From the NCBI GenBank assembly GCA_964561035.1, contig CAZLNR010000001.1, positions 40,577 to 104,576 on the forward strand: DNA of 64,000 nucleotides. The letters run 5' to 3'. The translations under genes were made by a program, and so were the position numbers. The stretch is from an uncultured Gammaproteobacteria bacterium (GTDB lineage Bacteria > Patescibacteriota > Patescibacteriia > Magasanikbacterales > GWA2-37-8). Below, piece after piece: positions 10,901-58,655 of the stretch; positions within the stretch are counted from its first letter, which is position 1; each line of letters starts with the position of its first letter. The notes beneath the pieces were generated by a model. It saw only the letters and a list, made by a program, of their open reading frames with translations, made no database searches and was not told the origin of the DNA.

Positions 10901-11677
10901 AAAGGTGATACCAACGCTTCCGGCGTTATTACTAATAACACAACTACACAATTTGTAGTAAAGAGTGATAGTAATACCGACATGGAAGCAAGAGCTGCTT
11001 CAGGCTCATTGCTTGGTACCGCTGAAATCAATTACAATCAATCAATTACAAGTGGTGTTGCAGAAAGCAATTTTGCTACTTCAACTGCCTACTTGTTCCA
11101 CGATGCTTACCCAACAGTAGCTAGTGAATCTTTGGGAACTGCCTTGTTTGTACCAGGAGCACAGACCCAAATTTTCAAATTCTCTGTTACCAACTCTGGT
11201 AAGACAGATTTAAGACTTGCGTCTACAACTGTAAGTGTAACTGTTACTGGTTTGGTAAGTAACGATTCAGTAAGCGACTTTAGATTGTATAGTGATAATG
11301 GTGGTAGTTTGGGCGATTTGCTTGCTCAAAACTCCGGATTTGTTACTTCTACTACTTCTACCTCAAACCCATTATCAGTAAACTTCAACACTGGCAATGA
11401 CCAGAATAGTTTGCTTGATAATTTGGTAGTTGCTCCAGGAACAAAGAGAACATTTATCGTAACCGCTAATACCTTGTCTGCAACTGTAAACAAGACCAGC
11501 GGTAAGATTTATATCTCTTCTAAGATTACTGGTTCAACTGGTTGGAGTGGAACAACCTGGAATACAGGTAATTTGTTCTACTTCTACACCCCAACTAACG
11601 GTAGTGAACAGGGTGCTTACTCTGCTTCAAACTCTTACGAAGTGCTCGGTCCTTCATTGGAATATAGCGCATCTTAA
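7958..11677 (+). CDS. Large secreted cell-surface protein (S-layer/major envelope protein candidate), 1239 aa
   Basis: Signal peptide MTDVLKSVKKIFTVSVVGATMLWSVGVSALLPSAANA-AV. Composition is dominated by T/S/A/G/V/N with very few charged residues. Codon usage differs from neighbours (aac, tac, ttc, ggt, gct, gtt, act preferred) as in highly expressed genes. A strong terminator follows. Confidence 0.7.
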   Translation: MTDVLKSVKKIFTVSVVGATMLWSVGVSALLPSAANAAVCPTLAAGDMIKVSGKAAIYSVNKDLKVLYFPSGDEFKSWNENNSYGGYVTVTQECFDSLPVPSAYPGAVNYRPGSYVVKRPSSDQLYVVLPGNSLAKISTTDAAALYGASYKVMTVADAFWPHYVNRGADVAGTVHEGMLVSKDGKTWYVAAGKVLREVTSTGMTANRFKSAFVHAVPAAYLTGTTVGSPLAALESALTNRTQDGAIASTPVTGGNLSVTLAADNPAAGNIADGSAYNKVLKLNLSASAATQVTGITLTKTGLIANSNVTGVSVWDAAGNRHGDVMTSLTSDNKITVSFGSYPILVGAGASESLTVAVNIAPAANSGLVGFSVAAATDVASNGTVGGSFPIVGNQMAIIDGNASLASTTISGLSVGGSSSQPASTASGNLQIGDVQKEVAKFRFTEQSGNEDVAVSKLTFYVAGTIQDADLANWSVYAPSGDKLGMTAAMSNRYVTVNFTSPYVVPKSTSRDFTVKVDVVNGSTRNFQVQLQSDYDVMMRGVTTGFYVLPANFTTAVASTNGWFNMGSGTLTVNKAPTSPSGNVSAGAQNIVLAKFDVKAAGEGMELRKMGLGVDRSGSTGASKTLTGNVVVRDATDGTVYLTVAGTASALYAGGAQYTLSSYLNLTAGQTKSLEVVGSIDATATSGHKYQVQIGNFYGKRLSTLDFADNLPTSGNTSTAANQLTVNATSLSCYKDTSMGNETRATGSTAVIGKYICTAGTSEDVRLSGLTFAFNGTSGQAANSFQNMALWDATSATEVQLGTTVSTVASSSNSYTFDLTVPKSQTKVLKLKAYVVPGYTGTMSSSISSGSYVGKDSNNTGSISTAVTGQTITIGSGTLNITSVTDATTISKVYGPEQTGVQLGKWKFAANNDDVALSKLTLQAVYANGSGAATTLGTFGSLALYEDGGSTALATASFVNGDVVFNNFSSNIAINSYKVYVLKGDTNASGVITNNTTTQFVVKSDSNTDMEARAASGSLLGTAEINYNQSITSGVAESNFATSTAYLFHDAYPTVASESLGTALFVPGAQTQIFKFSVTNSGKTDLRLASTTVSVTVTGLVSNDSVSDFRLYSDNGGSLGDLLAQNSGFVTSTTSTSNPLSVNFNTGNDQNSLLDNLVVAPGTKRTFIVTANTLSATVNKTSGKIYISSKITGSTGWSGTTWNTGNLFYFYTPTNGSEQGAYSASNSYEVLGPSLEYSAS

Positions 11678-19962: not shown

Positions 19963-20643
19963 ATGGATAATCGCAAACATCAGCTGCTTACCATGGTAAT
20001 AGAACATTATATCAAAAATGCAGAACCTGTCGGTTCCAAATTTTTGGTTTCCATTGGCGGTCTTGATTTTGGTGAAGCTACGGTGCGAAATGAGTTGCGC
20101 GAACTTGAAGAGGAAGGTTTTTTAACGCATCCGCATACATCGGCTGGCAGAATACCAACTGAAAAAGGATATAGATATTATGTCGATCAGCTAAATTTTG
20201 AAAACAGCAATATCCCTAAAAATGATTTTCAGTCCTTGGTTAATGCGGTGGCAGCGATTGAAGATTATGAGTTGGCTAGAAAAAAATTGGCCAAAGCTGC
20301 TAAGGATCTTTCTAACGAAACAGTGGTAATCGCTTTTTCGCCAGAAAAAATATACTATACAGGCTTATCAAATCTATTTAATAAATCAGAGTTTGCCGAT
20401 GCGAATAGTGTAGCTAATGTTTCTCAAATATTTGATCATTTTGAAGATTATTTAGAAGATTTTTTTGATAAAGTAGAAGATTCGCCGCGTTATTTTATTG
20501 GCAGCGAAAATCCGTTTGATGAAACGCTAAGCGTAGTGTCGGCACGGTTTGGCAAAGAGGGTATAGTGGCTCTATTGGGACCAAAGCGAATGGATTATAA
20601 ATATAATTTTAGTTTAATTAAAAAATTATTGGAGATTATTTAA
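19963..20643 (+). CDS. hrcA: Heat-inducible transcription repressor HrcA (short form)
   Basis: N-terminal winged HTH ..YIKNAEPVGSKFL..EATVRNELRELEEEGFL..HTSAGRIPT. Position is ahead of grpE-dnaK-dnaJ. Confidence 0.85.
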   Translation: MDNRKHQLLTMVIEHYIKNAEPVGSKFLVSIGGLDFGEATVRNELRELEEEGFLTHPHTSAGRIPTEKGYRYYVDQLNFENSNIPKNDFQSLVNAVAAIEDYELARKKLAKAAKDLSNETVVIAFSPEKIYYTGLSNLFNKSEFADANSVANVSQIFDHFEDYLEDFFDKVEDSPRYFIGSENPFDETLSVVSARFGKEGIVALLGPKRMDYKYNFSLIKKLLEII

Positions 20644-20658
20644 ATAGCTTTTACTAAT

Positions 20659-21180
20659 ATGACTGATGAGCAAATTTTACCGGATGAGTCAGCTTTGCCA
20701 GAAAATGCAGGTGCTGCGGCTTGTGAAAATTGTGAAAAATGCAAAGCCGAAATGGAAGAATATAAATCAGGTTGGCAGCGTGCCTTGGCAGACTATAAGA
20801 ATTTACAAAAAGAAACAGCTGATATGCGCGGTGTTTGGGCCAAAGCCAGCGAGGAATATATTTTAGAAGAATTTATTCCAGTATATGAAAACTTTAAAAA
20901 AGCCTTTGCCCATAAAGACAGTATGCCTTCGGAAAATGGCTGGCAGCAATGGGCGGACGGTATCGGATATATCAAAAAACAGTTTGGAGATATTTTAAAA
21001 AGCTATCAGGTTGAAGAAATAAAAACAGTTGGTGAAAAATTTGATCCGCGCCTGCATGAAGCTATTGGCGAAGAAGAATCTGGCGAAGCACAGTCGGGAG
21101 TAGTCCTGAAAGAGGTAGAAGGCGGATACAAGCGAGGAGATAAAATCATTAAACCGGCACGAGTTATTATTAATAAATAA
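20659..21180 (+). CDS. grpE: Nucleotide exchange factor GrpE
   Basis: C-terminal GrpE signature ..FDPRLHEAIG..GYKRGDKIIKPARVIINK. Confidence 0.85.
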   Translation: MTDEQILPDESALPENAGAAACENCEKCKAEMEEYKSGWQRALADYKNLQKETADMRGVWAKASEEYILEEFIPVYENFKKAFAHKDSMPSENGWQQWADGIGYIKKQFGDILKSYQVEEIKTVGEKFDPRLHEAIGEEESGEAQSGVVLKEVEGGYKRGDKIIKPARVIINK

Positions 21181-21184
21181 TTAT

Positions 21185-22192
21185 ATGAGCGAGCGCAGGC
21201 CGTTATCAGGTGAATTGCCTGATGAACATGATATTGAAGAAGCATTTGAGCGTTTACAATCCCCGGAAGGTCCCGGGCAGGTTAGTAGAGATATTGCATT
21301 TGATTCTGAAGATGGACGCACTACTGTAGTGGTTGATGAGGATCTGGTTGGGCCTGAATCATCGAGTGATAGTGCTGGTAATGTAGAATTAAGTTTTGGT
21401 TTTCCAAGTGTTCAGCGCACTTTAGGCGGTGATGGCGCTGGTTTGACAGCAAGTGATTTTGCTTCATCTGTAGACGATTTGCACCCAACATATGACAAGG
21501 TTCTCAATGATGTTAATGCCATTGTGAAAGATACGACCGCAAAAGATTTGGTTGCGTTAGTTGGAGGCAGGATGGAAAAAACTCGTTCTGCTGACACTCA
21601 GGGTGTTATCAATTATACAGTTTTGCTCCGTTTGCTGGAAAGATATGCGCAAAATAAGGGGTATAAGAATAATCCTAATTTTTTCAAAATAGTTGAAGTT
21701 CTTAGAGCGATAGATAAGTTAGACTATAATTTAAGCGAACATATTTCTCTTAATAATGATTCGCCTCGCTCATACTATGTGTTGAGAAAAATTGCTTACA
21801 TTTTAAATTCAAAATCGCCAAAAGATATTTTGAAAATGGTTAGAAGCGGTGGAATAAATCCATATTTAATTGCGGAAGTTGGCAAACGATATCAGACAAG
21901 TAAAACTATCTCTCAAGATTTGAAAAATAAAGTGCAAGTTGTTCTTGATGAGCAAAGAGTATATGAACCATTCTATGATGTGGAAGATATGATAGACGAA
22001 AGTTTGGAAGATCAAAAACCGCTGCTTTCGTTATTGAAGGAAAAACATGTGAGCTTAGACACAGTCCGGGGTTTGTTAGAAGATTACAAATCTGGAGCTA
22101 GAAGACAAGAGCGTAAAATGCATAATTATAAAACAGCTCTTGAAACTATGTTAAGAGATCCACAGTCAATTATTTTATTGGAGGGTGTGTAA
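21185..22192 (+). CDS. Hypothetical protein inserted between grpE and dnaK (acidic disordered N-terminus plus helical C-domain)
   Basis: 335-aa ORF sitting 4 nt after the grpE stop and 55 nt before dnaK. No recognisable motif. Confidence 0.6.
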   Translation: MSERRPLSGELPDEHDIEEAFERLQSPEGPGQVSRDIAFDSEDGRTTVVVDEDLVGPESSSDSAGNVELSFGFPSVQRTLGGDGAGLTASDFASSVDDLHPTYDKVLNDVNAIVKDTTAKDLVALVGGRMEKTRSADTQGVINYTVLLRLLERYAQNKGYKNNPNFFKIVEVLRAIDKLDYNLSEHISLNNDSPRSYYVLRKIAYILNSKSPKDILKMVRSGGINPYLIAEVGKRYQTSKTISQDLKNKVQVVLDEQRVYEPFYDVEDMIDESLEDQKPLLSLLKEKHVSLDTVRGLLEDYKSGARRQERKMHNYKTALETMLRDPQSIILLEGV

Positions 22193-22247
22193 TTATTTAT
22201 AAACAATCTTGTTAATTTTTAAATAAATCTAATTTCAATATATTCAT

Positions 22248-24149
22248 ATGTCCAAAGTTCTCGGAATTGATCTTGGTACCACCAACAGCTGTGTTGCAGT
22301 CATTGAAGGTGGGCAGCCAAAAGTGTTAGAAAATAAAGAAGGTAATCGCACCACGCCATCTATTGTGGCTATGTCTAAAACCGGAGAGCGGTTGGTTGGT
22401 CAGTTGGCTAAGCGCCAGGCCGTAACTAACCCGCAAAATACTTTGTATTCAGTGAAGCGCCTTATTGGCCGCCGTTTTGAAGATGCTGAAGTGCAACGCG
22501 ATTTGTCGTTATTGCCGTTTAAAATTGTTAAAAGCGATGACAAGGTAAAAATTGAAATGCAGGGCAAAGAATATACCCCTCAAGAAATTTCTGCCATGGT
22601 ATTGCAAAAGTTAAAAAGCGATGCGGAAGAAAAATTGGGAGAAAAAATTACCGAAGCCGTTATTACCGTACCGGCATATTTTGACGACTCGCAAAGACAA
22701 GCTACTAAAGACGCGGGCACTATCGCAGGCTTAAATGTGTTGCGTATTATTAATGAACCAACCGCAGCCGCATTGGCATATGGTTTTGATAAGAAAAAAG
22801 ATCAAAAAATTGCAGTCTACGATTTGGGTGGCGGCACTTTTGATATCTCTATTTTGGAAGTGAGTGCCGACACAGTGCAGGTATTATCTACCAATGGCGA
22901 CACTCACTTGGGCGGCGATGATTTTGATCAAAAAATAATCTCATGGATTTTGGAAGAATTTAAAAAAGACCAAGGTATCGATTTGAGCAAAGATCCATTG
23001 GCCTTGCAGCGCATTAAAGAGGCTGCGGAAAAAGCCAAGATTGAGCTCTCTACAGCCCAAGAAACCGAAGTTAATCAGCCGTTTATTACTTCTGATTCTT
23101 CCGGACCAAAACATTTGGTAATGAAATTAACTCGCGCTAAATTGGAAGAGCTGGTTGGAGATTTGGTTGAAAAAACCTTAGTGCCAGTTCGCAAGGCATT
23201 GGAAGATGCAAAATTATCAGCTAACGATTTGCACGAAGTGGTGATGGTTGGTGGTATGACTCGCATGCCGCTCGTATTGCAAACTGTAGAAAAGTTTTTC
23301 AATAAAAAACCAAATATTAGTGTAAACCCAGATGAAGTGGTTGCTATCGGCGCAGCTGTTCAAGCTGGCGTGTTAAAAGGCGAAGTGCATGATGTGTTAT
23401 TGCTTGATGTTATTCCTCTATCATTTGGTTTAGAGACCATGGGCGGAGTAATGACTAAGCTTATCGAACGCAACACCACTATTCCGACATCAAAGAGCCA
23501 AGTATTTTCTACAGCAGCGGACAATCAGCCAGCGGTAGAAATTAATGTGTTGCAAGGTGAGCGCTCTATGGCAGCTGACAATAAAACACTTGGCCGATTT
23601 ATTTTGGATGGTATTCCACCGGCTCCACGCGGCGTACCGCAAGTAGAAGTAACTTTTGATATTGACGCTAATGGTATTTTAAATGTAAAGGCTAAAGATA
23701 AGGCTACCAACAAAGAACAGTCAATTCGCATTGAAGCTTCCACTGGCTTGTCCAAAGAAGAAGTGGAAAAAATGAAACAAGATGCTGAAGTGCATGCCGC
23801 TGAAGATAAAAAGAAGCAGGAGCTTATTGAGGCGCGCAACATTGCCGATACCATGGTGTATACTACCGAAAAAATGATGAAAGAAGTAGAAGAGAAAAAA
23901 GTGGCGGTGACTGATGATGAGAAAAATAAAATTAATGATGCATTAAAAGCCGTAAAAGAAGTTAAAGATAAAGATGATGTAGAGGCAATTAAAAAAACAT
24001 CAGAGGAGCTATCGAAAGTTGCTCAAGCGGTTGGTGCTAAAATGTATCAAGCCGGACAGGCTGGCCAGCCAGGCGCTGATGCTGCGGCTTCGGGCGGAGA
24101 AGAAAAGAAAGATGAACAGGGTCCGATTGAAGGTGAAGTGGTAAAATAA
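22248..24149 (+). CDS. dnaK: Chaperone DnaK (Hsp70)
   Basis: [31 protein letters not shown]; 633 aa with a C-terminal acidic tail. Confidence 0.95.
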
Positions 24150-24209
24150 TTATCATATTATTTTGTCTGCAACAAGGCGGTGGTATTTATATATAATTAA
24201 AATTATAAT

Positions 24210-24686
24210 ATGTCTGAGCATCAAGAGTCGGTCGGTTCTTTGGAAGCATTTAGATCGGAAATTCAGCGAATAGTTGACCGGCTTCGTCATGTAGATGGTA
24301 CGCTACAAAAAATTACCGACGTGAAAGAGTTGGATAATGACGCCTTAGCTATTTGGAATAATCTTAAAAATATTATACGTGATATTAGCCAGTTGGATGT
24401 AAACATGAACAATAAGGAGGTTCAAAAAAACTTTGATTATTTGTTAGAGAGAAGTCGTAAATTAGCCAATGATACAAAAAATTTGGCTGAAAGTAATGCG
24501 GCGCAATCAAAGAACTCGGCATGTGAATTTTATGCTTGGATTAATAATCGTATTCCTATAGGGCAAATTCAACTTGCGCTTGAGACTCTTGTGGACAGTG
24601 GTTCTGCTAAAAGTGCTGTAGAAGATTTGCAAGATTTGTCTAAAACTTCTATAGATTTATTAGCTGGGAAAGATGCGGCGGCATAA
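24210..24686 (+). CDS. Hypothetical helical protein inserted between dnaK and dnaJ
   Basis: 158-aa ORF, 60 nt after dnaK and 6 nt before dnaJ. No recognisable motif. Confidence 0.55.
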   Translation: MSEHQESVGSLEAFRSEIQRIVDRLRHVDGTLQKITDVKELDNDALAIWNNLKNIIRDISQLDVNMNNKEVQKNFDYLLERSRKLANDTKNLAESNAAQSKNSACEFYAWINNRIPIGQIQLALETLVDSGSAKSAVEDLQDLSKTSIDLLAGKDAAA

Positions 24687-24692
24687 AAGAAT

Positions 24693-25763
24693 ATGGCCAA
24701 CAAAGATTATTACAAAATTCTCGGCGTAGAAAAAAATGCTTCGGCTGATGAGATAAAAAAAGCATTTAAAAAAGCAGCTATGCAGCATCATCCAGACCGA
24801 CCAGGCGGAGATGAGGCAAAGTTTAAAGAAGTAAACGAAGCCTATCAGGTTTTAAGCGATACTGAAAAACGCCAGCGCTACGACCAATTCGGCTCTGATT
24901 TTGAACAGCAGGGCGGTTTTGGCAATGGGGCTGGGTGGGAAGATGTTATGAGTGCGTTCAGAGGCGGTGGTTTTTCCGGAGGGGATTTCGGCGATATTTT
25001 TGGCGACTTATTTGGCAGTAGGGGAGGCCAGCGTCAAAATCGCGGACAAGATATTCAGGTTGATGTAGAGATAGATTTCAAAGAAGCTGCGTTTGGTGCA
25101 GAAAAAGAAATTACTTTGCGCAAACAAAATGCTTGTGATATTTGCCGCGGCTCTGGAGCAGAGCCAGGGTCAAAAATGGAAAAATGTTCTACGTGCAATG
25201 GTCGCGGCCAGGTAACCAAAATACAACATACTTTTTTAGGCACGATGCAAGCAGCGGCTCCTTGTGATGCGTGTCAGGGCAGGGGAGAAAAACCTGCGAA
25301 AAAATGCAAGCATTGCCATGGGTCTGGGGTTGCGCAAAGCAATTCTAATATTAAAATTAAAATACCTGGAGGCATAGAAAGCGGGCAGTCTATTCGTTTA
25401 GATGGCTATGGTGAGGCTGCTTCATTTGGCGGTGTGCCGGGCAGTCTATATGTGCGTGTGCGCGTAAAACCGTTAGCCGGTTTTTCACGAGACGGTTCAG
25501 ATGTATACACAGAGCAAGAAATTAGTTTTGTGCAGGCGGTGCTGGGAGACAAAATTCAAGTGCAAACCCTTGATGAAATGGTAACGCTTGTCGTGCCAGA
25601 AGGTGTTGAGTCAGGGCAATTGATTCGTATTAAACACAAAGGCATGAACAAACTGGGGGGTGGTAATCGTGGAGACCACTATGTTAAAATAAAAATCAGG
25701 GTTCCTAAAAAGATTAGCAAAGACACAAAAAAACGTCTTGAAGAGTTGCGAGCGGAGCTTTAG
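24693..25763 (+). CDS. dnaJ: Co-chaperone DnaJ
   Basis: J-domain [12 protein letters not shown], Gly/Phe-rich linker, four CxxCxGxG zinc-finger repeats. Confidence 0.9.
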
Positions 25764-29778: not shown

Positions 29779-31074
29779 ATGTCATATCTTATTATTAATG
29801 GGGGTAAAAAACTTAAGGGAGAGATTGTTAACCAATCTTCCAAGAATTCAGCTGTGGCGCTTCTGTGCGCATCTCTTTTAGTTCGCGGTAAAACCACTCT
29901 TACAGAAGTGCCTGATATTGAAGAGGTGAATCGTATTTTAGAATTACTTGCCAGTATGAGGGTTGTTATAGAAAAACCATCTCCTGGTACCTTGGTTGTT
30001 GATACGTCCGCAGGCATATCTTTAAAGTCAATTGATAAACATGCTTCCGAAGTAACCAGATCTTCTTTGTTGCTATTAGGCGCTCTAGCCTCTTTTCGTG
30101 CCAGTTATAAGTTATATAAATCTGGCGGCTGTCGTTTGGGCGAGCGCACTGTGCGTCCCCATTTATACGCGTTAGAAAAATTTGGAGTGAGCGTTGTTTC
30201 AAAACAGTCTTTTTATGAAGTGAAAAATAACGGCTTGCGTTCTGCCGAATTGGTTATGTATGAATCTGGTGACACGCCAACAGAAAACGCTATTATGGCC
30301 GCGGTCTTGGCACCCGGTAAAACTACCATTCGTATGGCTTCGGCAAATTATATGGTGCAAGACCTATGTTATTTCTTGCAAGAAGCCGGCGCACGCATTG
30401 AAGGTATTGGCACCACAACACTTGTTATAGATGGTGTGAAAGAATTGAAAAAAAGCGTACGTTATTCTGTAATGCCCGATCCGATTGCGGCTATGACATT
30501 TTTATCCGCAGCCATTGTAACCGGGTCCCACTTAACAATCAAAAATTGTCCGATGGATTTTTTGGATTTAGAATTATGTAAATTAGAAAAAATGGGTCAG
30601 AAGTTTACGGTTGTTTCACAGCCTCATGATCGGTATCGCATGGCAAGTATTGAAGTTTTTCCGTCAAAATTAAAAGCTTTGCCGGATAAAATTTATGGCC
30701 GGCCATTTCCTGGGTTAAATATAGATAACCTGCCTCTCTTCGCGCCTATTCTGGCTGTTGCTAAAGGACGCACATTGGTTCATGATTGGGCATATGAAAA
30801 TCGATCTGTATATTATCTCGAAATGCAAAAGCTGGGCGCTAAAGTAAATTTGCTTGATTTACACCGTGCCTGGATAGAAGGACCAACCACGTTTAAGGCA
30901 AACGAAGTTGTCTGTCCTCCGGCGTTACGCCCAGCAGTTAATATTCTTATCTGCATGATGGCTGCTAAAGGAAAGTCGGTGCTCCGTAATATCTATGTGA
31001 TAGATAGAGGCTACGAACATATTTACGAAGTATTTAATAAAGTTGGCGCCAGCATTACTCTGGTAAAAGAATAA
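29779..31074 (+). CDS. murA: UDP-N-acetylglucosamine 1-carboxyvinyltransferase
   Basis: EPT fold. The SKNSAVALLCASLL segment and the active-site Cys context SGGCRLGERTVRPH match MurA. Confidence 0.9.
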   Translation: MSYLIINGGKKLKGEIVNQSSKNSAVALLCASLLVRGKTTLTEVPDIEEVNRILELLASMRVVIEKPSPGTLVVDTSAGISLKSIDKHASEVTRSSLLLLGALASFRASYKLYKSGGCRLGERTVRPHLYALEKFGVSVVSKQSFYEVKNNGLRSAELVMYESGDTPTENAIMAAVLAPGKTTIRMASANYMVQDLCYFLQEAGARIEGIGTTTLVIDGVKELKKSVRYSVMPDPIAAMTFLSAAIVTGSHLTIKNCPMDFLDLELCKLEKMGQKFTVVSQPHDRYRMASIEVFPSKLKALPDKIYGRPFPGLNIDNLPLFAPILAVAKGRTLVHDWAYENRSVYYLEMQKLGAKVNLLDLHRAWIEGPTTFKANEVVCPPALRPAVNILICMMAAKGKSVLRNIYVIDRGYEHIYEVFNKVGASITLVKE

Positions 31075-47672: not shown

Positions 47673-49289
47673 TTAGGCGCTAGCTTCTATAGACTCTTCG
47701 GTCGGTAATGCCTTCTGTTTAAAGAGACGGTTGCCAACAGCTTGTTTAATTTGAATAAGTTCAGGGACTTTCAAAAGGTAACATATTACCAAATAAATTG
47801 CCAGACCCGCGATTGCAGCTGTTACTCCTTGTCCTAAAATGCCCAAAAAATAATTTTGGTTAAAAATTGCAGCTAAAGGTTCTTTGATAAGCTGTACAGT
47901 TACCCCCATACAAAGTGCTGCAATTGCCATGCGATACAGGGAGGAAAAAATTCGTTCGCCATCTATAGTTTTAGTTATATGTTTTAAAGAAATAAACAAT
48001 AAAATCATATTTAAAAACGAACCTACGGAAAAAGCCAGGGCTAAACCGGCGACACCGAATGGTTTCATAAGCAAGAGCGCCGCAATGATGGTGGTGAGTT
48101 CGGAAATAATACCGATTACAAATGGTGTTTTTGTGTCGGCTAGAGCGTAAAAGGCGCGCGCCAGAATTGGTATCAGGGCTTGGGCGCATAAACTTAAAGC
48201 AAAAAACGCCAGAGTGTCGGCGGTGGTGATGGTTGCGTTCCAGTCAAACTTTCCTGTGCCATAAATAATGCGTACAGTCTGCGCTCTTAGTAGTAAAATA
48301 ATTATGGATGATGGAATGATTAAAAATAATGTTTGTCGGATAGTGGAAGAGAGGTGTTTGATAAATTCCTCTTCGTTATTATTTGCAGCCGCAGCGGAAA
48401 GCAGGGGAAATACCGCCAAGGCAAACGGGATGCCGATAATTCCGATTGGCACAGCTTGAAGATTGTTGGCAAAATTAAAAACAGTGACACTGCCAACAGG
48501 CAAAAGTGATGCGAGTATGGTGATAATTACCAGGTTGAGCTGGCTGATAGCCAAGCCAAGCGTGCGAGGAATCATTAATCTGCCAACCGTGCGTGTGTAT
48601 CTGTCTTGTATGTTGATATACCAGTGCCATCTAAATCCATTTTTGTATGCGCTGTATGTTTGTAAAGAAACATGCAAAAAAGCGCCCAGTACTACGCCCC
48701 AAGCCAGCCCAGTAGTGCCAAAAAGAGGTACAAATATGACAGCTCCGGCAATAATGCCTAGGTTATAAAAAATAGGTGCTAGCGAGTATAAGAAAAAAGC
48801 CCGCAGTGATTGCAGGATGCCTCCAATTACCATGGAAATACCAAGCAATACGGTTGAACCAAACATAATCCGCGTCATTTGCGCCACTAGCTGTTGTGAA
48901 TCGGCGCTAAAGCCAGGAGCGATTATAGGGGCAAAAAAACCGGCAAAAGCGATGCAGATAATACTTAAAATAATAAGCGAAGCAGCAGTTATATTAAGAA
49001 CATTATTGGCAAGTTTCCATGCTTCAGTTTTGTCTTCGTTTTGATTGAATAATTTTGTAAAGGTAGGAATAAAACCGGCGCTTAAAGCCCCGATAATAAG
49101 CAGGTTATAAATTAGGTCTGGAATTTTAAAAGCCGCGTAATAGGCATCCATAGTAGGGCCGGCGCTAAAGTAGTGCGCAAAAATTCTGTCCCGAACCAAA
49201 CCGGTAATACGGCTTATGAGAGTGGCGACAGAGATAATGAGTGCGGCACCGGTTACAGATTTTGAACGGCTGTTAAAAAGTTTTATCAT
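47673..49289 (-). CDS. murJ: Lipid II flippase MurJ (MviN family)
   Basis: N-terminal ..[35 protein letters not shown].. and about 14 TM helices. Confidence 0.85.
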
Positions 49290-52100: not shown

Positions 52101-52153
52101 TTGACTACTGCAGATAAGTGGTATAAAATGGATTGTAGTGGAGTGAAGTGGGG
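52101..52153 (+). promoter_or_regulatory. Candidate dcw-cluster promoter (TTGACT-17-TATAAA) with three GTGG(N) direct repeats at 10/20-bp phasing (MraZ-box-like)
   Basis: ttgactactgcagataagtggtataaaatgg, then GTGG at 52118, 52138 and GTGGGG at 52148, immediately upstream of mraZ. Confidence 0.4.
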
Positions 52154-52198
52154 AAAATGCTTGTCTCTCTAATTTCACAAAACTATTTTCTATCTATG

Positions 52199-52627
52199 TT
52201 CATTGGCGAATATAGCCACAATTTAGACGATAAGGGCCGTATGGCTGTTCCGGCAAAATTTCGCCGTGATTTAAGCAAAGGGGCGGTTGTTACCCGAGGT
52301 TTGGATAATTGTTTGTTTTTATACACCAAAACCGAATGGGAAAAGCTTGCTGAGAAACTGGCAAACTTGCCAATCAGCCAATCCAACACCAGAGCGTTTT
52401 CACGCTTAATGTTGGCCGGAGCTATGGATGTGGAAATGGATAAGCAGGGTAGAGTAATCTTGCCTGAGTACTTACGCAGTTTTGCGGGTATTAAGAAAAA
52501 TTTGGTGATCGCAGGTTTGTATAATCGGTTAGAAATTTGGGATCAGGAATTGTGGAATACATATAAAAAACAAACTGAAGTTGAAAGTGGAGCAATAGCT
52601 GAGAAAATGGGGGAATTGGGAGTTTAA
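52199..52627 (+). CDS. mraZ: Transcriptional regulator MraZ
   Basis: MFIGEYSHNLDDKGRMAVPAKFR.. and a second DxxxR repeat (..QGRVILPEYLR..). The start at MFIGEY is preferred over the longer ORF. Confidence 0.85.
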   Translation, partial: FIGEYSHNLDDKGRMAVPAKFRRDLSKGAVVTRGLDNCLFLYTKTEWEKLAEKLANLPISQSNTRAFSRLMLAGAMDVEMDKQGRVILPEYLRSFAGIKKNLVIAGLYNRLEIWDQELWNTYKKQTEVESGAIAEKMGELGV

Positions 52628-52642
52628 TTATAGATTTACACT

Positions 52643-53545
52643 ATGAAACACGTACCGGTTTTATTAGATGAAACGATCAGTTCTTTACAATTAGCGCCAG
52701 GAATGCGAGTTATTGATTGTACTCTCGGAGATGCGGGGCATAGCGAGGCTATGCTGGAAAAAATTTCTCCAAACGGCATGTTGCTTGGCATTGATGCAGA
52801 CCCGGAAGCGGTTTTGCGCGCCAAACGATTTTTATATCGCTTTGAAGATCGGGCTGTGCTGGTTCGAGAAAATTTTGCGCATATTGCTTCGATTGCTGCT
52901 GCGCATAATTTTACAGAAGTGCAGGGCGTACTTATGGATTTTGGCTGGTCCACGCCGCAGTTTGAAGAACGGGGAAGAGGGTTTAGTTTTCTAACCAATG
53001 AGCCGCTTGATATGCGTTATAGTGCTGGTGAAGGCCAAACCGCTGCGGAGATAGTCAACACTTACTCAGAACATGATCTGTATTTGATTTTTAAAATGTT
53101 GGGAGAAGAGCAGTTAAGCGCGGAAATTGCCGCCGCCATAGTGTTTTATAGAAAAAATAAACAAATTGAAACAACGGGCGAATTAACCGAGATCATTTTA
53201 TCCCAATATAGAAAGAAATTAAAAACAGATAAAGAAGTGCCATGGGTGGGCGGTATTCATCCAGCCACGAAAGTATTCCAAGCGCTGCGCATAGAGGCCA
53301 ATCAAGAATTGGAAAGCATTAAAAAAGTTTTGCCCGAAGCGCTGGAGCTATTGGCGCCGCATGGAAGATTGGCTGTTATCACATTTCATTCTTTGGAAGA
53401 CAGGATTGTAAAACAATATTTTAAATCACAAGAAAACAAAAAAATACGATTGGTAAATAAAAAACCGATTGTGGCCGGCGAAGAGGAGTTAAAAAATAAT
53501 CCTCGCGCCCGCAGTGCCAAATTACGAGTTGTAGAAAAAATATAA
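52643..53545 (+). CDS. rsmH: 16S rRNA (cytosine1402-N4)-methyltransferase
   Basis: HVPVLLDE, DCTLGDAGHS, FHSLEDRIVK. Confidence 0.9.
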   Translation: MKHVPVLLDETISSLQLAPGMRVIDCTLGDAGHSEAMLEKISPNGMLLGIDADPEAVLRAKRFLYRFEDRAVLVRENFAHIASIAAAHNFTEVQGVLMDFGWSTPQFEERGRGFSFLTNEPLDMRYSAGEGQTAAEIVNTYSEHDLYLIFKMLGEEQLSAEIAAAIVFYRKNKQIETTGELTEIILSQYRKKLKTDKEVPWVGGIHPATKVFQALRIEANQELESIKKVLPEALELLAPHGRLAVITFHSLEDRIVKQYFKSQENKKIRLVNKKPIVAGEEELKNNPRARSAKLRVVEKI

Positions 53546-53554
53546 TTTATACAT

Positions 53555-53914
53555 ATGTCTATCAAACGCCAGATTTCACACAAATTACGAACCGTTGCTG
53601 TAGCATTTCAGTCTGATTTGCTGCCCGCTTGGATATTTTCGCCAGTGATGCGCCTGGGCTTATGTGCCATTATAGTATCTTTCGGTGCTGCCTATGTGGT
53701 AAATATCACCGCTTCAGCTACAAGCGGATATCAAATGCGTTTGTTGGAAAAACAAGCCAGCGCTTTGGAGTTGGATGTGCGCAAGCTGGAGGTTGAAATT
53801 GCGGACAATACCTCAATGTCCAGTATTGCTTCGCGCGTGCAAAAAACTCAAATGACTGAAGTTGCTGATGTTAAATTTTTGGCAGGCACAAACGGCACGG
53901 TGGCAAAAAAATAA
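53555..53914 (+). CDS. FtsL-like cell-division protein (single TM plus coiled coil)
   Basis: Position directly after rsmH; TM helix followed by a heptad-repeat segment (..LLEKQASALELDVRKLEVEIAD..). Confidence 0.5.
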   Translation: MSIKRQISHKLRTVAVAFQSDLLPAWIFSPVMRLGLCAIIVSFGAAYVVNITASATSGYQMRLLEKQASALELDVRKLEVEIADNTSMSSIASRVQKTQMTEVADVKFLAGTNGTVAKK

Positions 53915-53934
53915 TTTTCCATATTATCTTACTT

Positions 53935-53961
53935 AAAAAATCCTCAATATGAGGATTTTTT
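53935..53961 (+). terminator. Terminator-like hairpin
   Basis: aaaaaatcctcaatatgaggatttttt. Confidence 0.65.
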
Positions 53962-54349
53962 GTTGCGCGCTTATATGGTATACTATATATATCGTTATAT
54001 GATGATTCTTATTTTAGAAAAATTATTTTTGGAAGCAATACTTGATGTTTTTTATTTTCCGATTTGGTGGTATACCGCCGGTGCGGTTCGTGCCGGCAAA
54101 CGATGCTTGTTGTGGTTGGCGCGCGGCAACGAAACTTTGGCTCCAGGCATATGGTTGACGCATATTTTTGTGCCAATGTTTGGGCAATATGATTGGCAGG
54201 GCAGAATCGTTAGTTTTTTTATGCGCTTGGTTCAGATTATTTTTCGCACTGCCGCTTTAGCAGTTTGGCTGGCTTGCTGTTTTTTATTTTTTATGTTGTG
54301 GCTGGCACTGCCTTTGTTAGTATTTTACGGAATTTTATATGGAGTTTAA
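53960..54349 (+). CDS. Hypothetical small membrane protein, translationally coupled to the Clp-like gene
   Basis: 129 aa (start may be internal), 3 to 4 TM helices; its end overlaps the next ORF start by 11 nt. Confidence 0.4.
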   Translation: MLRAYMVYYIYRYMMILILEKLFLEAILDVFYFPIWWYTAGAVRAGKRCLLWLARGNETLAPGIWLTHIFVPMFGQYDWQGRIVSFFMRLVQIIFRTAALAVWLACCFLFFMLWLALPLLVFYGILYGV

Positions 54350-57104
54350 GAAAAATCAACCTTTACCGCTTCTTGTTTGCGACGTTTGCAGCGGCGTGGG
54401 CAGGCGTGGTTTTAAAAAATGCGCGCAGTGCCATGGTATGGCTGCAGGGTTAAGTTTGCGAGGCAGCTGGCTATATTGGGGTTTTCCGCTTGATACGTAT
54501 AATCTCAGGCTGCAGGCAGGAAGGCGAGCACTCAATATAATTAGGTTTATTACCGTGCTGGTGCTGTGGCTCAATGCCTGGATATGGACGGCGCTGTTTG
54601 TATACAAACAAGGCGTGTTTGCAGTATTAAGACATCCAAAACAATGGACGGCATTTGTTGCTTCATTGGATAAATGGTCTGTTTTCTTATTTTGGTTTGG
54701 AGTAGTAGCGATGCTGTATTTGTGGTATCGCATATTGCGCCAGAAAGAACCTTTTGATAAAACGGTTGGATTATTTACTTTTTACAATAATCCATCAAAA
54801 GAACAAGATCTCACAATTGGTTCCTGGTCCGAAGCTGCACGCGTCTCAAGAAAAAAGAAAAAAAATATCGCGATTGGATTTACTCCCGAAGCTCTGGCTT
54901 CGCTCGGAAAAGCATATCTATATGCCAATAAAATGCGTTCACCGGCCATGGAGTCTGCTCATATATTTTATGCGCTGCTTTCTTGCAATCGTATTAGTAA
55001 TATTTTTATCAGACTCGGCATACCGTCAAGTGTTCTCTTAAAAGAAGCCGAAGCCTTATGTGTAAATAATACGCCAACTCATGCTGGAGTGTCGCCGCGA
55101 CTTTCCGATGATGTTCTGCAAATCATTTTTCAATCATATGAAAATGCGTTTGCGGCCAAGCAGCCATACGTTAGTGTAACCGAATTGCTGATGTTCGCAA
55201 TCGCAGCCAACCCGGCAATTCAAAATATTTTATTTAATTATGATATTTCCGAAAGACAGTTAGCCAATGTGGTTGCATGGGCGCGTATGAAAGAAAAAAT
55301 GCATCGGGATTACCTTGTTTTTAAAAAAGCCGTAAAACATCATTCAAAGTATGGTATGGATAGAGCTATGACTGCTTTGGCTACGCCATATTTAAATAGT
55401 TTTAGCACTGATGTGACCGCGTTGGCGCATTATGGTCAGTTAGAGTCATGTGTGGCGCGTGGTAATGAGTTAGATGAAATATTTCAAATGGTTGAAGCTG
55501 GAGAAAAAGGCATATTGATGGTTGGAGAAACTGGTGTGGGAAAAAATACCATCGTTGAAGGCATAGCTCAGCGTATGGTTGCAGGAGAGGTGCCCGAGCT
55601 GTTAAAAGATAAGCGTTTAGTGCGTTTGAGTATTTCAGCGCTCTTGGCAGGTGCAAGTCCTGAAGGGGTAGCCGAGCGAGTGCAGCGTATTATGGAAGAA
55701 ACCGCGCGAGCGCGAAATGTTATTTTGTATATTAGCGGTATTGACGAGTTGATAGGTATAACGGTGGGTCAAGAGGGCGGCTTGGATATGGCAGATACAT
55801 TGCGTGAATTTTTAGGCGATAAAAATATAATCGTATTTGCCACCACAACCCGAGAACGATATGCGCAGCATGTGCTTGGTTCTTCGCTGAAAAGTATATT
55901 TACTATGGTTGAAATAGGCGAGATGAACGAAGATCAGGCTATACAGGTTTTAGAATCTCGGGCTGGATTTTTGGAGTATAAACATTCGGTATTTTTTTCA
56001 TATGCCGCTATAGAGACATGCGTAGAGTTTGCCAAAAAGTTTTTCCACGATGCTCCTTTGCCGGTTAGCGCGCTTGAACTTTTGACAGAATCAGCCAGCT
56101 ACACTAAAAATAAAAAAGGTTCTCATGCAATTATTACCAAGGAAGAGGTTGCTTTGGTGGTTACCGCAAAAACTAAAATTCCGGTGGCTGCAATTTCTGG
56201 CAATGAATCTGAAAAGCTGATGCGTTTAGAAGAAGAAATGCGCAAGCGAGTGGTGGGGCAAGAAGAAGCGGTGCAGGCGGTGGCCGGAGCTTTGCGCCGA
56301 GCGCGCGCTGATTTGCATGCGCGCAAGCGACCGATGGCAAGCTTTTTATTTTTAGGTCCAACCGGTGTCGGTAAAACCGAGCTTGCTAAAACCATCGCCG
56401 ATATTTATTTTGGCGGAGAAAATCGCATGATTCGGCTGGATATGAGTGAGTATCAGGATAAAACCAGTCTTTATCGCCTTATTGGCATGCCGGGCTCTCA
56501 AGGCACGGGTATCTTAACCGAAGCTGTACATAAAGCGCCGTTTTCTTTGGTGTTGCTTGATGAAATTGAAAAAGCAGATCCGGATATTTTAAATTTATTT
56601 TTACAGGTAATGGATGATGGCAGGCTCACGGATAGCGCTGGTCGCGTTTTTGATTTCACTAATGTTATTATCATTGCAACCTCAAATGCCGGCACATTGT
56701 TTGTCCGCGAGCAGGCGCGAGCGGGCATGTCGCATGACGAGTTGTTAAATCAGTTGCTACATGAAGAATTGCATCATTATTTCCGCCCAGAGTTTTTAAA
56801 TCGGTTTGATGGTATTGTACTGTTCAATTCTCTTGAACGAGATGCGATTAAGCAGGTGGCGCGGCTTATGTTTGACAGTATTGCCAAAGATATGGAAAAT
56901 AAAGGGGTTCATATTTCGGCCACAGAGGAGGCGCTTGATTTTTTGGCCGATGCCGGATTTGATCCTGAGTTTGGCGCTCGTCCGATGCGTCGCGCTTTGC
57001 AGGAAAAAGTTGAAAATAAAATGGCAGAACTATTTTTGCAAGGCAAATTAAAACGAGGCAGCAGCGTTACAATTGGCGCGCAAGGAGCTTTGTTTATTGA
57101 TTAG
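54339..57104 (+). CDS. Membrane-anchored Clp/Hsp100-family AAA+ ATPase with N-terminal CxxC..CxxC zinc ribbon and two TM helices
   Basis: Zinc ribbon CDVC..CAQC (aa 14-31). TM helices IIRFITVLVLWLNAWIWTALFVY and VFLFWFGVVAMLYLWYRIL. Two Clp_N-like repeats. NBD1 has an atypical Walker A, GETGVGKNT. NBD2 is canonical (GPTGVGKTE, LLDEIEKA, sensor-2 GARPMRRAL). No M-domain and no IGF/LGF ClpP loop were seen. Confidence 0.8.
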   Translation: MEFKKNQPLPLLVCDVCSGVGRRGFKKCAQCHGMAAGLSLRGSWLYWGFPLDTYNLRLQAGRRALNIIRFITVLVLWLNAWIWTALFVYKQGVFAVLRHPKQWTAFVASLDKWSVFLFWFGVVAMLYLWYRILRQKEPFDKTVGLFTFYNNPSKEQDLTIGSWSEAARVSRKKKKNIAIGFTPEALASLGKAYLYANKMRSPAMESAHIFYALLSCNRISNIFIRLGIPSSVLLKEAEALCVNNTPTHAGVSPRLSDDVLQIIFQSYENAFAAKQPYVSVTELLMFAIAANPAIQNILFNYDISERQLANVVAWARMKEKMHRDYLVFKKAVKHHSKYGMDRAMTALATPYLNSFSTDVTALAHYGQLESCVARGNELDEIFQMVEAGEKGILMVGETGVGKNTIVEGIAQRMVAGEVPELLKDKRLVRLSISALLAGASPEGVAERVQRIMEETARARNVILYISGIDELIGITVGQEGGLDMADTLREFLGDKNIIVFATTTRERYAQHVLGSSLKSIFTMVEIGEMNEDQAIQVLESRAGFLEYKHSVFFSYAAIETCVEFAKKFFHDAPLPVSALELLTESASYTKNKKGSHAIITKEEVALVVTAKTKIPVAAISGNESEKLMRLEEEMRKRVVGQEEAVQAVAGALRRARADLHARKRPMASFLFLGPTGVGKTELAKTIADIYFGGENRMIRLDMSEYQDKTSLYRLIGMPGSQGTGILTEAVHKAPFSLVLLDEIEKADPDILNLFLQVMDDGRLTDSAGRVFDFTNVIIIATSNAGTLFVREQARAGMSHDELLNQLLHEELHHYFRPEFLNRFDGIVLFNSLERDAIKQVARLMFDSIAKDMENKGVHISATEEALDFLADAGFDPEFGARPMRRALQEKVENKMAELFLQGKLKRGSSVTIGAQGALFID

Positions 57105-57110
57105 AGTAGT

Positions 57111-58130
57111 ATGATGTTGTATTTTTTTATATCTTTTGTTATTTCGGTTTTTTTAACCTTTTTAATAAAAAAATTTGCGTATGGCGCTGGGGTAGTGGAT
57201 ACGCCAGATGCCAGCCGCCATTTGCATGCCAAGCCAACTCCGTTGTTGGGTGGGTTGGCAATTTTTTTGTCTTTTTGGGTTACAGTCTGCACTGTAATGG
57301 TATATTTTCCGGTATATGGCATAGAGAAAATCATAGACCCCCTTATGGTTGCTCTGGTCGGATCTCTCATTATTATGCTTGTAGGTATTGCAGATGACCT
57401 TCATCCATTTTCAGCTACAATACGTTTGCCTCTGGTGATGGTGGCAATACTCATTGTAACATTGTTTTTTCCTTGGCTAACAAAGATTACTAATCCGTTG
57501 GGTGGGTATCTTTTTTTAGCAAATGCTGCCGGCAGTGTGTTGGTATTTTGCTGGTTTTTGGGCATGACATATACCACAAAAATTTTAGATGGTTTAGATG
57601 GTTTGGCAACGGGGGTTGTTTCCATAGGCGCGTTTATTATTGTTTTGCTAACCGCCGTTACAAAGTTTTACCAGCCTAATGTTAGCTTGGTAGCTCTTAT
57701 ATTTCTTGGGTCTTGTCTCGGTTTTTTGTTGTTTAATTTTCATCCTGCTCAAATATTTTTAGGGGAAAGCGGCAGCATGTTTGTCGGGTTTATGCTGGCA
57801 GTTTTAGCAGTAATCGGCGGAGGTAAGCTGGCCACTGCGTTGTTGGTTATGGCTATACCGGTCTTGGATGTTTTGCGGGTTATGTATATCAGAATACGCA
57901 AAAAACAAAGCATTTTTTCCGGAGATAGAGAGCATTTGCATTTTAGAATGGTAGATGCAGGGTTTACCCAAAAACAATCTGTATTATTTTTATACGCAAT
58001 TTCTTTTTTCTTTGGCATAGCTACGCTGTTTTTGCAGAGTTTGCAAAAAGTATATGCGCTGGCAGTGTTAATTATTATTATGGTTGTGTTAAGCCATGTT
58101 GTTGGCAAAAATAAAAAAACATATGTCTGA
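57111..58130 (+). CDS. Polyprenyl-phosphate N-acetylhexosamine-1-phosphate transferase (MraY/WecA family GT4; MraY favoured by context)
   Basis: KPTPLLGGLAIF, GIADDL, LDGLDGLATG, FLGESGSMFVGF motifs; about 10 TM helices. Confidence 0.75.
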   Translation: MMLYFFISFVISVFLTFLIKKFAYGAGVVDTPDASRHLHAKPTPLLGGLAIFLSFWVTVCTVMVYFPVYGIEKIIDPLMVALVGSLIIMLVGIADDLHPFSATIRLPLVMVAILIVTLFFPWLTKITNPLGGYLFLANAAGSVLVFCWFLGMTYTTKILDGLDGLATGVVSIGAFIIVLLTAVTKFYQPNVSLVALIFLGSCLGFLLFNFHPAQIFLGESGSMFVGFMLAVLAVIGGGKLATALLVMAIPVLDVLRVMYIRIRKKQSIFSGDREHLHFRMVDAGFTQKQSVLFLYAISFFFGIATLFLQSLQKVYALAVLIIIMVVLSHVVGKNKKTYV

Positions 58131-58599
58131 TCAGGTAAAAACATTTAAAAAATGGCATCTGGCAGCTTTTGCGATTATTATAATTTTGGCGTTGGGTAAT
58201 AAAATATATGGATATATATGGCCTAAAACCAATATTTATATTAGCCAGGAAAAAATACGCGTTCTGGTGGCGGATACGGCTGCGCACAGGTTTAAGGGGT
58301 GGAGCGGTCGTGCCGATATGGGGAAGTATGGCGGAATGCTGTTTGTTTTCCCGCAACCCGATCGGCATGCCATGGTAATGCGAGATATGTATTTTGCTCT
58401 TGATATAATTTGGCTAAATCAAGGTAAAATAATAGATATTGCGCCATCTCTGGCTCCACAGGCAGGTGTGGCAGAAGATCAATTGACCGTGTATCGTCCT
58501 CGTGGTGTTGCGGACATGGTTTTAGAAGTTCCGGCCGGTTTTGCGGAGCGGGCGGGTTTAAAAATAGGGGATACGGTTGAAATTGTTGACAAAATTTAG
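58123..58599 (+). CDS. DUF192 domain protein
   Basis: N-terminal TM helix then a DUF192-like core (..VLVADTAAHRFKGWSGRADMGKYGGMLFVFPQ..). The start at MSDQ is preferred; it overlaps the previous gene. Confidence 0.55.
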   Translation: MSDQVKTFKKWHLAAFAIIIILALGNKIYGYIWPKTNIYISQEKIRVLVADTAAHRFKGWSGRADMGKYGGMLFVFPQPDRHAMVMRDMYFALDIIWLNQGKIIDIAPSLAPQAGVAEDQLTVYRPRGVADMVLEVPAGFAERAGLKIGDTVEIVDKI

Positions 58600-58655
58600 T
58601 TTTTATCGTATACTAATAGCGTTATTATTCTAACTCAATTATTCTGACTTATTTT

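Follow-up and report, generated by a model that had tools for sequence, protein, structure and literature searches.

A gene on the plus strand of the 64,000-nucleotide stretch analysed here (contig CAZLNR010000001.1 of GenBank assembly GCA_964561035.1; hereafter the window, with its first nucleotide as position 1) encodes a membrane-anchored, Clp-like AAA+ protein (54339..57104). Directly upstream lies a gene encoding a small membrane protein (53999..54349). Typical Hsp100/Clp proteins are soluble threading machines. With moderate confidence, we propose that the Clp-like protein is instead a Patescibacteria-specific, membrane-anchored Clp/Hsp100 paralogue that acts independently of ClpP as a remodelling ATPase. 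In this proposal, the protein would be driven by the second of its two nucleotide-binding domains (NBD1 and NBD2), would work with the small protein as its partner, and would act in the field of cell-envelope or division biogenesis. Unless stated otherwise, the features described below are on the plus strand, and related loci are cited by handles such as L057 where they need to be told apart.

Domain architecture and membrane module

According to the ORF listing, the Clp-like gene is a single ATG-start open reading frame (ORF) of 921 residues. Its product comprises, in order, a CxxC-x10-CxxC zinc ribbon, two transmembrane (TM) helices, a Clp N-domain, NBD1 and NBD2, and has no M-domain. This arrangement within one gene had been proposed from the DNA alone in an earlier annotation (the original prediction) and was borne out by the present analysis. 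An AlphaFold2 model of the monomer, calculated from an alignment of 91 orthologues, had a mean predicted local distance difference test score (pLDDT) of 82.5 and a predicted template-modelling score (pTM) of 0.71.

The protein belongs to the Clp/Hsp100 class-1 AAA+ superfamily, with two Clp-type modules and an N-domain. Pfam searches identified AAA_2 (residues 664–824, E 3.3e-51), ClpB_D2-small (residues 832–912, E 3.1e-25) and AAA_lid_9 (residues 531–600, E 2.3e-7), and the NCBIfam ClpA model could be aligned end to end over residues 188–912. In phmmer searches of the PDB, ClpC, ClpB and ClpA were matched with E values of 1e-124 to 1e-99, the value for ClpC being 1.5e-124. The top Foldseek matches were ClpC, ClpB and ClpC1 (E 1e-54), with a target-normalised TM-score of ~0.8 for the D1–D2 body.

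The N-terminal zinc ribbon spans residues 11–47 (54369..54479). Its four cysteines are arranged as C14-x2-C17-x10-C28-x2-C31 and are followed by a β-hairpin, with AlphaFold2 strands at residues 12–46. Motif counts were taken over 91 full-length orthologues, column by column in one alignment; the four cysteines are kept in 90/91 of these and in all 43 complete N-termini from species-representative genomes. The first motif is DnaJ-like (CxxCxGxG) and typically reads CPxCxGxG across the wider family. However, the DnaJ cysteine-rich domain (PF00684, DnaJ_CXXCXGXG) scored 16.7 bits (E 0.009) against a cut-off of 32.7, and the protein has two CxxC motifs, not four. The likeness of the ribbon to a DnaJ unit thus appears to be a resemblance only, and a weak one in this protein. 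No significant match was found when the N-terminal 187 residues were compared with the PDB using phmmer; the best zinc-related match, the DnaJ-like zinc protein anti-TRAP (E 1.1), is a lead only. The N-terminal module is not represented by any curated model in Pfam or NCBIfam.

The zinc ribbon is followed by TM helix 1 (residues 64–90; 54528..54608; Kyte-Doolittle peak of 2.02 at residues 70–88, AlphaFold2 helix 53–90) and TM helix 2 (residues 113–134; 54675..54740; peak of 1.85 at residues 115–133, AlphaFold2 helix 112–136). The 22-residue loop between them (residues 91–112) is poorly conserved, with an alignment consensus of 'x' throughout, and is presumably outside the cell. The first 63 residues are basic, with 10 K/R and 3 D/E, which fits an N-in/C-in topology in which the zinc ribbon, like the ATPase body, lies in the cytoplasm.

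The Clp N-domain (54885..55340) was delineated from the AlphaFold2 model and domain models. The predicted 2 × 4 helices over residues 183–334 comprise two four-helix repeats (residues 183–300) and a long conserved linker helix (residues 305–334). The two Clp_N-like repeats of the original prediction were thereby recovered, although this protein scored 18.9 bits with Pfam Clp_N, just short of the 20.7-bit threshold; PF02861 is on record for orthologues. The linker that follows (residues 338–360; 55350-55420) reads GMDxAMTAxATPxLNxFSxDxT, is near-invariant in the 91 orthologues and extends the usual Clp motif TPxLDxFxxDLT.

A degenerate NBD1 and an intact NBD2 without a pore-loop tyrosine

NBD1 (D1; 55386..56138) was aligned to Bacillus subtilis ClpC and to Escherichia coli ClpA and ClpB and is degenerate at each of its functional motifs. 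The P-loop, canonically GEPGVGKTA, is GETGVGKNT (55524-55550, residues 396–404), while the Walker B motif ILFIDELH is replaced by ILYISGID (ILYISGIDE at 55722-55748; DE to SG). Similarly, the arginine-finger segment ALERRFQ has become SLKSIFT (RR to SI) and the pore loop AGAKYRGEFE has become AGASPEGVAE, with KYR changed to SP in an A-S-P-E context. The Walker B DE pair and the arginine fingers are each present in 0/91 orthologues and a pore-loop aromatic residue in 1/91. The original prediction had noted the atypical GKN Walker A, which we also observed, but had understated the degeneracy, since the Walker B motif, arginine fingers and pore loop are altered as well. NBD1 is therefore predicted to be wholly non-catalytic, the GKN being one symptom.

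The NBD1 P-loop nevertheless retains a conserved form. G396, G399 and G401 do not vary, and 83/91 orthologues keep K402. The canonical S/T immediately after Lys402 is found in 7/91, whereas an S/T one position later, at residue 404, is found in 90/91. This displacement past the canonical site suggests a shifted or Mg-independent nucleotide site. The conserved form of the P-loop can be written GK[KR][ST].

By contrast, the catalytic apparatus of NBD2 is complete. NBD2 and the D2-small domain together span 56211..57074, with Walker A at 56355-56378, Walker B at 56550-56573 and the pore loop at 56478-56516. The Walker A K/T, the Walker B D/E, the sensor-1 N, the arginine finger (R822) and the sensor-2 R (within GARPMRR) were each present in 91/91 orthologues. 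The original description of a canonical NBD2 with sensor-2 thus holds for the catalytic residues but not for the pore loop. A deletion of four residues in the GYVG pore loop converts 'GAPPGYVGYEEGG' to 'GMPGSQGTG' and removes the tyrosine; over the longer segment, the canonical GAPPGYVGYEEGGYL corresponds to GMPGSQGTGIL. An aromatic residue is found in the NBD2 pore loop of 0/91 orthologues.

Two further elements of characterized Clp proteins were sought. The M-domain is absent, as originally proposed, and appears as a gap of ~120 columns relative to E. coli ClpB; the shorter ClpC M-domain is absent too. The expectation that there would be no ClpP-binding loop was also upheld: a ClpP-docking [ILVM]-G-[FL] tripeptide was not found. 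The equivalent turn is A-G-M in this protein and K-G-K, K-G-T or N-T-P in other clades. At the position of the ClpA IGL loop, AlphaFold2 predicted a four-residue turn between helices 786–794 and 799–813. We considered whether A-G-M could be a cryptic ClpP loop and rejected this, as its first residue is not hydrophobic, the turn has four residues and other clades carry K-G-K or N-T-P. Lacking a ClpP loop, an M-domain and pore tyrosines, the protein is unlikely to degrade substrates, to disaggregate them with DnaK or to thread them classically.

Conservation and integrity of the family

The gene is an uninterrupted ORF of 910–930 residues in 46 species-representative genomes. These 46 related loci, of which 43 include upstream DNA and 42 include downstream DNA, are all from Magasanikbacteria or Patescibacteria metagenome-assembled genomes (MAGs). 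The closest public DNA to the window is a Patescibacteria MAG contig (L001), with 93–98% amino-acid identity.

More broadly, a profile search of 1.84 billion cluster representatives, clustered at the 50%-identity level, returned 157 proteins at E <= 1e-30, or 340 when the threshold was relaxed to E <= 1e-10. Named sources of the family are Magasanikbacteria, Uhrbacteria, Falkowbacteria, Kerfeldbacteria, the 'Parcubacteria group' and the 'Patescibacteria group'. Among the matches listed, 79 representatives were full-length (>= 850 residues); at least one hydrophobic helix was present in the first 220 residues of 79/79 of these, and the CxxC…CxxC pattern in 52/79.

The original prediction had raised the possibility that the N-terminal 150 residues are a separate upstream gene, or that orthologues uniformly lack the TM/zinc-ribbon region. 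Neither is the case. The zinc-ribbon/TM fusion occurs in the same ORF in 43/43 Magasanikbacteria loci from different species, and orthologues found with residues 1–370 as the query carry the same N-terminus in the same polypeptide. It is accordingly scarcely conceivable that a frameshift or an assembly error fused the N-terminus to the gene, or that the ORF as a whole is a pseudogene in decay. At first sight, the degeneracy of NBD1 might point to decay, but we found nothing else in favour of either variant. Moreover, 43 species-level genomes and over 150 protein clusters share the unbroken ORF with its N-terminus, the degenerate positions of NBD1 are themselves conserved (N467 in 88/91 orthologues, as well as S/T404), and NBD2 is invariant. 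The conserved intact ORF and the conserved motif states refute both variants.

The motif states extend beyond the 91 orthologues. In 78 representatives from the wider family, the NBD1 Walker B DE is kept in 1, the RR fingers in 7 and the KYR pore loop in 0. The degeneracy of NBD1 in nearly all of these suggests that this module died early in the family. In NBD2 of the same proteins, 7 keep a PGY/PGF loop, the others have a shortened or substituted loop, and Walker B is always intact. Judged from these alignments, many lineages have dispensed with the NBD2 pore loop, whereas strict constraint has acted on the hydrolysis residues.

These data bear on whether the protein is a threading enzyme. 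The original prediction had likened it to FtsH-like quality control. In this alternative, the protein would thread its substrates, extracting or unfolding them in the quality control of membrane proteins, as a protease-less analogue of FtsH or Msp1 with the small protein as its adaptor or substrate. The two-TM anchor would place the entry face formed by the N-domain and NBD1 against the membrane, as in FtsH; the hydrolysis residues of NBD2 are complete; and some relatives, such as the Uhrbacteria proteins P0142 and P0034, keep GAPPGY in NBD2. By contrast, the pore-loop aromatics are essentially gone from both rings of the orthologues, the NBD2 loop is four residues shorter and no protease partner motif was found. 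The repeated loss of the pore loop across the family argues, moreover, that it is dispensable. With no protease domain, no ClpP loop, no pore-loop aromatics and no NBD1 hydrolysis residues, most of the hardware of a threading unfoldase is missing. The FtsH-like proposal is therefore weak, and we consider a threading extractase possible but distinctly less probable than the non-threading remodelling ATPase proposed above.

A candidate partner encoded directly upstream

The gene upstream of the Clp-like gene (53999..54349) encodes a protein of 116 residues. The start originally given for it, 53960, was revised on the basis of an alignment of 56 homologues, in which 53999 is most likely. The protein carries the conserved motifs FPIWWYT.G and PMFGQYDWQGR. 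AlphaFold2 predicted, with a pLDDT of 93.5, a two-helix hairpin in which helices 2–44 and 63–112 are joined by a loop of invariant consensus PMFGQ.DWQGR. The ~30 C-terminal residues are strongly hydrophobic. We identified 304 homologues, all annotated as 'hypothetical' and all from Patescibacteria. No family in Pfam or NCBIfam matched the protein, and its homologues likewise have no Pfam family.

The proposed coupling of the two genes was confirmed and extended. In the window, the stop of the small gene overlaps the start of the Clp-like gene by 11 nt. In each of the 43 Magasanikbacteria loci with upstream DNA, the gene immediately before the Clp gene is a homologue of the small gene; 37 of these loci have a stop-to-start distance of −14 to +18 nt. 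In eight distant contexts, L047 (Uhrbacteria), L049, L050, L054, L055 (Falkowbacteria), L056, L057 (Kerfeldbacteria) and L058, a homologous gene of 120–137 residues again immediately precedes the Clp gene (hmmsearch E 1e-24 to 3e-48). Reciprocally, look-ups that started from homologues of the small protein found a Clp gene of ~925 residues directly downstream in 2/2 cases. Overall, the small gene and the Clp gene form a conserved core unit.

A possible role of this unit in anti-phage defence was dropped. According to PADLOC, the Clp protein gave only generic AAA_2-region matches and the small protein none; its core-like synteny also speaks against a defence system.

Comparison with characterized AAA+ proteins

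The Clp-like protein fails the defining features of ClpB, ClpA, ClpC, ClpE and ClpV, and of FtsH, which lies outside the Clp/Hsp100 superfamily. It resembles ClpB/Hsp104 in having a class-1 N-domain, two AAA+ modules and a D2-small domain, and in lacking the ClpP tripeptide; its NBD2 is ~50% identical to that of ClpB in motif regions. Unlike ClpB/Hsp104, it has no M-domain, and thus no site for DnaK control, its NBD1 is dead, the KYR and GYVG tyrosines are missing, and it carries a membrane anchor and zinc ribbon. Its score against the ClpB equivalog model TIGR03346 was 520.7 bits, against a cut-off of 1232. With ClpA and ClpC it shares the domain order without a long M-domain, and its best PDB and Foldseek matches are ClpC. 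In contrast to these proteins, it has no IGL/VGF ClpP loop, no ClpC M-domain, no active NBD1 and no pore tyrosines, and it has an additional membrane module of 180 residues. The ClpA equivalog TIGR02639 gave 483.4 bits (cut-off 993) and the ClpV/TssH equivalog TIGR03345 gave 412.3 bits (cut-off 885); neither the window nor the related loci showed any type VI secretion genes.

An N-terminal zinc module is also found in ClpE of the Firmicutes, a soluble double-AAA+ Clp protein with an N-terminal Cys4 module that contains ClpX-type zinc fingers and that binds ClpP. The window protein likewise carries an N-terminal Cys4 zinc module on a double-AAA+ Clp body, and the ClpE structure 29hb was among its PDB matches. 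However, its first zinc motif is the DnaJ-like CxxCxGxG, two TM helices follow and there is no ClpP loop. FtsH combines an N-terminal two-TM anchor and a folded periplasmic domain with an M41 protease and a single AAA module, whose pore loop is aromatic. In both proteins, a two-TM N-terminal anchor sets an AAA+ ring at the cytoplasmic face of the membrane. By contrast, the window protein has two Clp-type modules, no Pfam Peptidase_M41 match and an unconserved outer loop of 22 residues.

Could the protein simply be a housekeeping ClpB, ClpC or ClpA orthologue, acting as a disaggregase or ClpP partner, that happens to bear an anchor? Public records name the family 'ATP-dependent Clp protease ATP-binding subunit ClpC/ClpA', and its strongest sequence matches are ClpC and ClpB. 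However, its ClpB, ClpA and ClpV scores are far under every equivalog cut-off, and the elements needed for either activity are absent, as described above. In addition, a Kerfeldbacteria contig (L057; JACPGK010000032.1) encodes a canonical ClpB of 857 residues (L057:8333-10906) two genes downstream of the membrane form. This ClpB has an M-domain, KYRG, GYVG, RRF and both Walker A and Walker B in each module. The occurrence of the two on the same contig indicates that the membrane-anchored form is a paralogue. We therefore regard a housekeeping role as very improbable, and the public label of ClpC/ClpA-type protease subunit is very probably wrong. The family is widespread (157 clusters), and inferences about proteolysis that are drawn from Patescibacteria genomes would inherit this error.

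Two other groups of AAA+ proteins offer parallels. Type-II AAA+ proteins with one inactive ring include NSF (D2) and Pex1/Pex6 (D1) (see the reviews PMC5447069 and PMC6862443). By analogy, such proteins pair a motor tier with one that has kept its P-loop but not the residues for hydrolysis. The NSF and Pex1/Pex6 proteins differ from the window protein in that they belong to the classical AAA+ clade, keep substrate-engaging pore loops in the active ring and are not integral to the membrane. Torsins (see the review PMC5425593) are related to Clp D2, have no aromatic pore loops, are membrane-associated and need membrane partner proteins. The Clp-like protein is similarly a Clp-derived, membrane-associated ATPase without aromatic pore loops and with a putative membrane partner. 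Unlike Torsins, which have a single AAA module, no arginine finger of their own and a location in the eukaryotic endoplasmic reticulum lumen, it has R822 and sensor-2 in NBD2.

Gene order and neighbouring genes

The order of genes in the window is mraZ, rsmH, an ftsL-like gene, the small ORF, the Clp-like ORF, a GT4 gene, a DUF192 gene and rplU, followed by recR on the other strand. According to the ORF listing and synteny, the upstream block (52148..53914) comprises mraZ (52148-52627), rsmH (52643-53545) and the ftsL-like gene (53555-53914). The product of the latter has a single TM helix and a coiled coil and matches no family in Pfam or NCBIfam; it is a putative FtsL by position and architecture only. 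Genes of the mraZ-rsmH-ftsL group, recognized by MraZ/Methyltransf_5 matches, precede the Clp pair in 35/46 loci and also in L047, L056 and L060. In L058, rsmH and an ftsL-like gene lie upstream of the pair, and the locus ends before any mraZ. In L054 (3635-4973), the pair directly follows rpmH-rnpA-yidD-yidC, a membrane insertase cluster, and not mraZ-rsmH-ftsL.

Other bacteria carry ftsI, murE and murF after ftsL. In the window, no ftsI, murE, murF, mraY, ftsW or murG was found after the ftsL-like gene (52148-53914 and downstream). Instead, the small-protein/Clp/GT4 unit occupies the slot after the ftsL-like gene where the division and cell wall (dcw)-type cluster stops. Elsewhere in the window are murJ (47673-49289, minus strand) and a gene resembling murA (29779-31074).

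The GT4 gene (57111..58130) begins 6 nt past the Clp stop and encodes a polyprenyl-phosphate sugar-1-phosphate transferase of the WecA/MraY superfamily (Pfam Glycos_transf_4, E 5.8e-27). Among NCBIfam models, WecA scored best (103.9 bits), followed by archaeal MraY-like (90.8) and bacterial MraY (59.8), all far under their cut-offs. GT4 follows the Clp gene in 35/42 loci with downstream DNA and in 6/10 other contexts. The next gene (58096..58599) encodes a DUF192 protein with an N-terminal hydrophobic segment (Pfam DUF192, E 3.7e-26) and, by synteny, is probably the last gene of the unit. As listed, this ORF shares 35 nt (58096-58130) with the end of GT4, and its true start may be further downstream.

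The boundaries of this unit are marked by two candidate signals. Between the ftsL-like and small genes, folding detected a 13-bp hairpin followed by a U-run (53934..53962; minimum free energy −18.6 kcal/mol, z −4.07, 0/200 shuffles as stable) that a consensus terminator scan had missed. This hairpin is a possible terminator or attenuator splitting mraZ-rsmH-ftsL from the Clp unit. The strongest promoter-like site of the region, with 11/12 matches, is at 58586-58614, just 5′ of rplU. Between the two, the small gene, the Clp gene, GT4 and DUF192 overlap or abut each other, which suggests a four-gene unit whose products all appear to be membrane-associated. The apparent membrane association of the four products and the position after mraZ-rsmH-ftsL make the envelope or division field likely.

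This gene order also raises a more specific form of the remodelling reading, in which the Clp-like protein would regulate the GT4 enzyme (WecA/MraY-type) or the divisome by governing the first membrane step in wall-polymer synthesis, be it at the level of assembly, turnover or activity. FtsH/LapB control LpxC, and Clp controls FtsZ and MurA; these parallels are, however, analogies. The recurrent position of GT4 after the Clp gene, with the 6-nt gap in the window, and the frequent mraZ-rsmH-ftsL genes upstream are consistent with such a role. By contrast, GT4 does not adjoin the pair in L047, L049, L054 and L057. On balance, we consider this specific form unlikely.

Proposed mechanism

In the remodelling reading that we favour, an N-in/C-in helical hairpin would insert the protein in the cytoplasmic membrane and hold the DnaJ-like zinc ribbon and the Clp N-domain at its inner face. 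A Clp-type ring, presumably a hexamer, would assemble, anchored by the TM hairpins. Within it, NBD1 may serve as a structural or assembly tier that binds nucleotide without hydrolysing it, in parallel with NSF-D2 and Pex1/6-D1, and NBD2 would hydrolyse ATP as the sole motor. The outcome would be the ATP-driven remodelling or release of a membrane-proximal client through the zinc ribbon and N-domain rather than processive polypeptide threading. The co-translated hairpin protein of 116 residues would contact the Clp-like protein as an obligate partner, whether as adaptor, regulator or client, and the field of action would be cell-envelope or division biogenesis.

Several observations weigh against this proposal. 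The 7/78 representatives that keep a PGY/PGF loop make substrate threading a probable activity of the ancestor, and in the present clade the role of the loop might be taken over by other residues. The proposal does not account for two conserved features, S/T404 in NBD1 and G796 in the turn that matches the ClpA IGL loop. The tight spacing of the two genes could also mean that the small protein is just an operon mate. Finally, the dcw link of the Clp pair is lineage-limited: mraZ is absent from the 5–6 kb upstream of the pair in L049, L050, L054, L055, L057 and L059.

More tentatively, the small hairpin protein and the Clp paralogue may constitute a Patescibacteria-specific, two-component membrane AAA+ machine that has abandoned threading and in which NBD2 switches or disassembles a membrane complex of wall synthesis or division. 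If true, this would represent both the first Hsp100 integral to the membrane and a counterpart, in bacteria, of the Torsin-like, partner-dependent ATPases derived from Clp. Full-text literature searches, for which most subscription journals were outside scope, found no description of the family. The family illustrates the reach of re-purposing of the Hsp100 scaffold, being membrane-integral, with only NBD2 intact, no pore tyrosines and a putative obligate small membrane partner, and it raises the question of what a Clp motor does without pore loops. The candidate phyla radiation (CPR) consists of ultra-small bacteria without many canonical components. Given its conserved position next to mraZ-rsmH-ftsL and a transferase of the WecA/MraY type, the Clp pair is a candidate for a lineage-specific envelope or division factor in CPR.

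Other features of the window

The remainder of the window has the ordinary content of a small genome, including hrcA-dnaK-dnaJ, murJ, lepA, recJ, dnaB and yidC. The heat-shock cluster (19963-25763) contains hrcA (19963-20643), dnaK (22248-24149) and dnaJ (24693-25763). A grpE gene is expected between hrcA and dnaK; two ORFs lie there (20659-21180 and 21185-22192), the second without a Pfam match. An ORF of 1239 residues at 7958-11677 also had no Pfam match at E <= 1e-5.

Many TPA MAG records titled 'uncultured Gammaproteobacteria bacterium' (L002, L003, L007, L010 and others) share the Patescibacteria synteny, as does L008 (DATION010000002.1), which is titled 'Candidatus Udaeobacter sp.'. Given this synteny and proteins that are 50–95% identical, the organism labels of such records look wrong.

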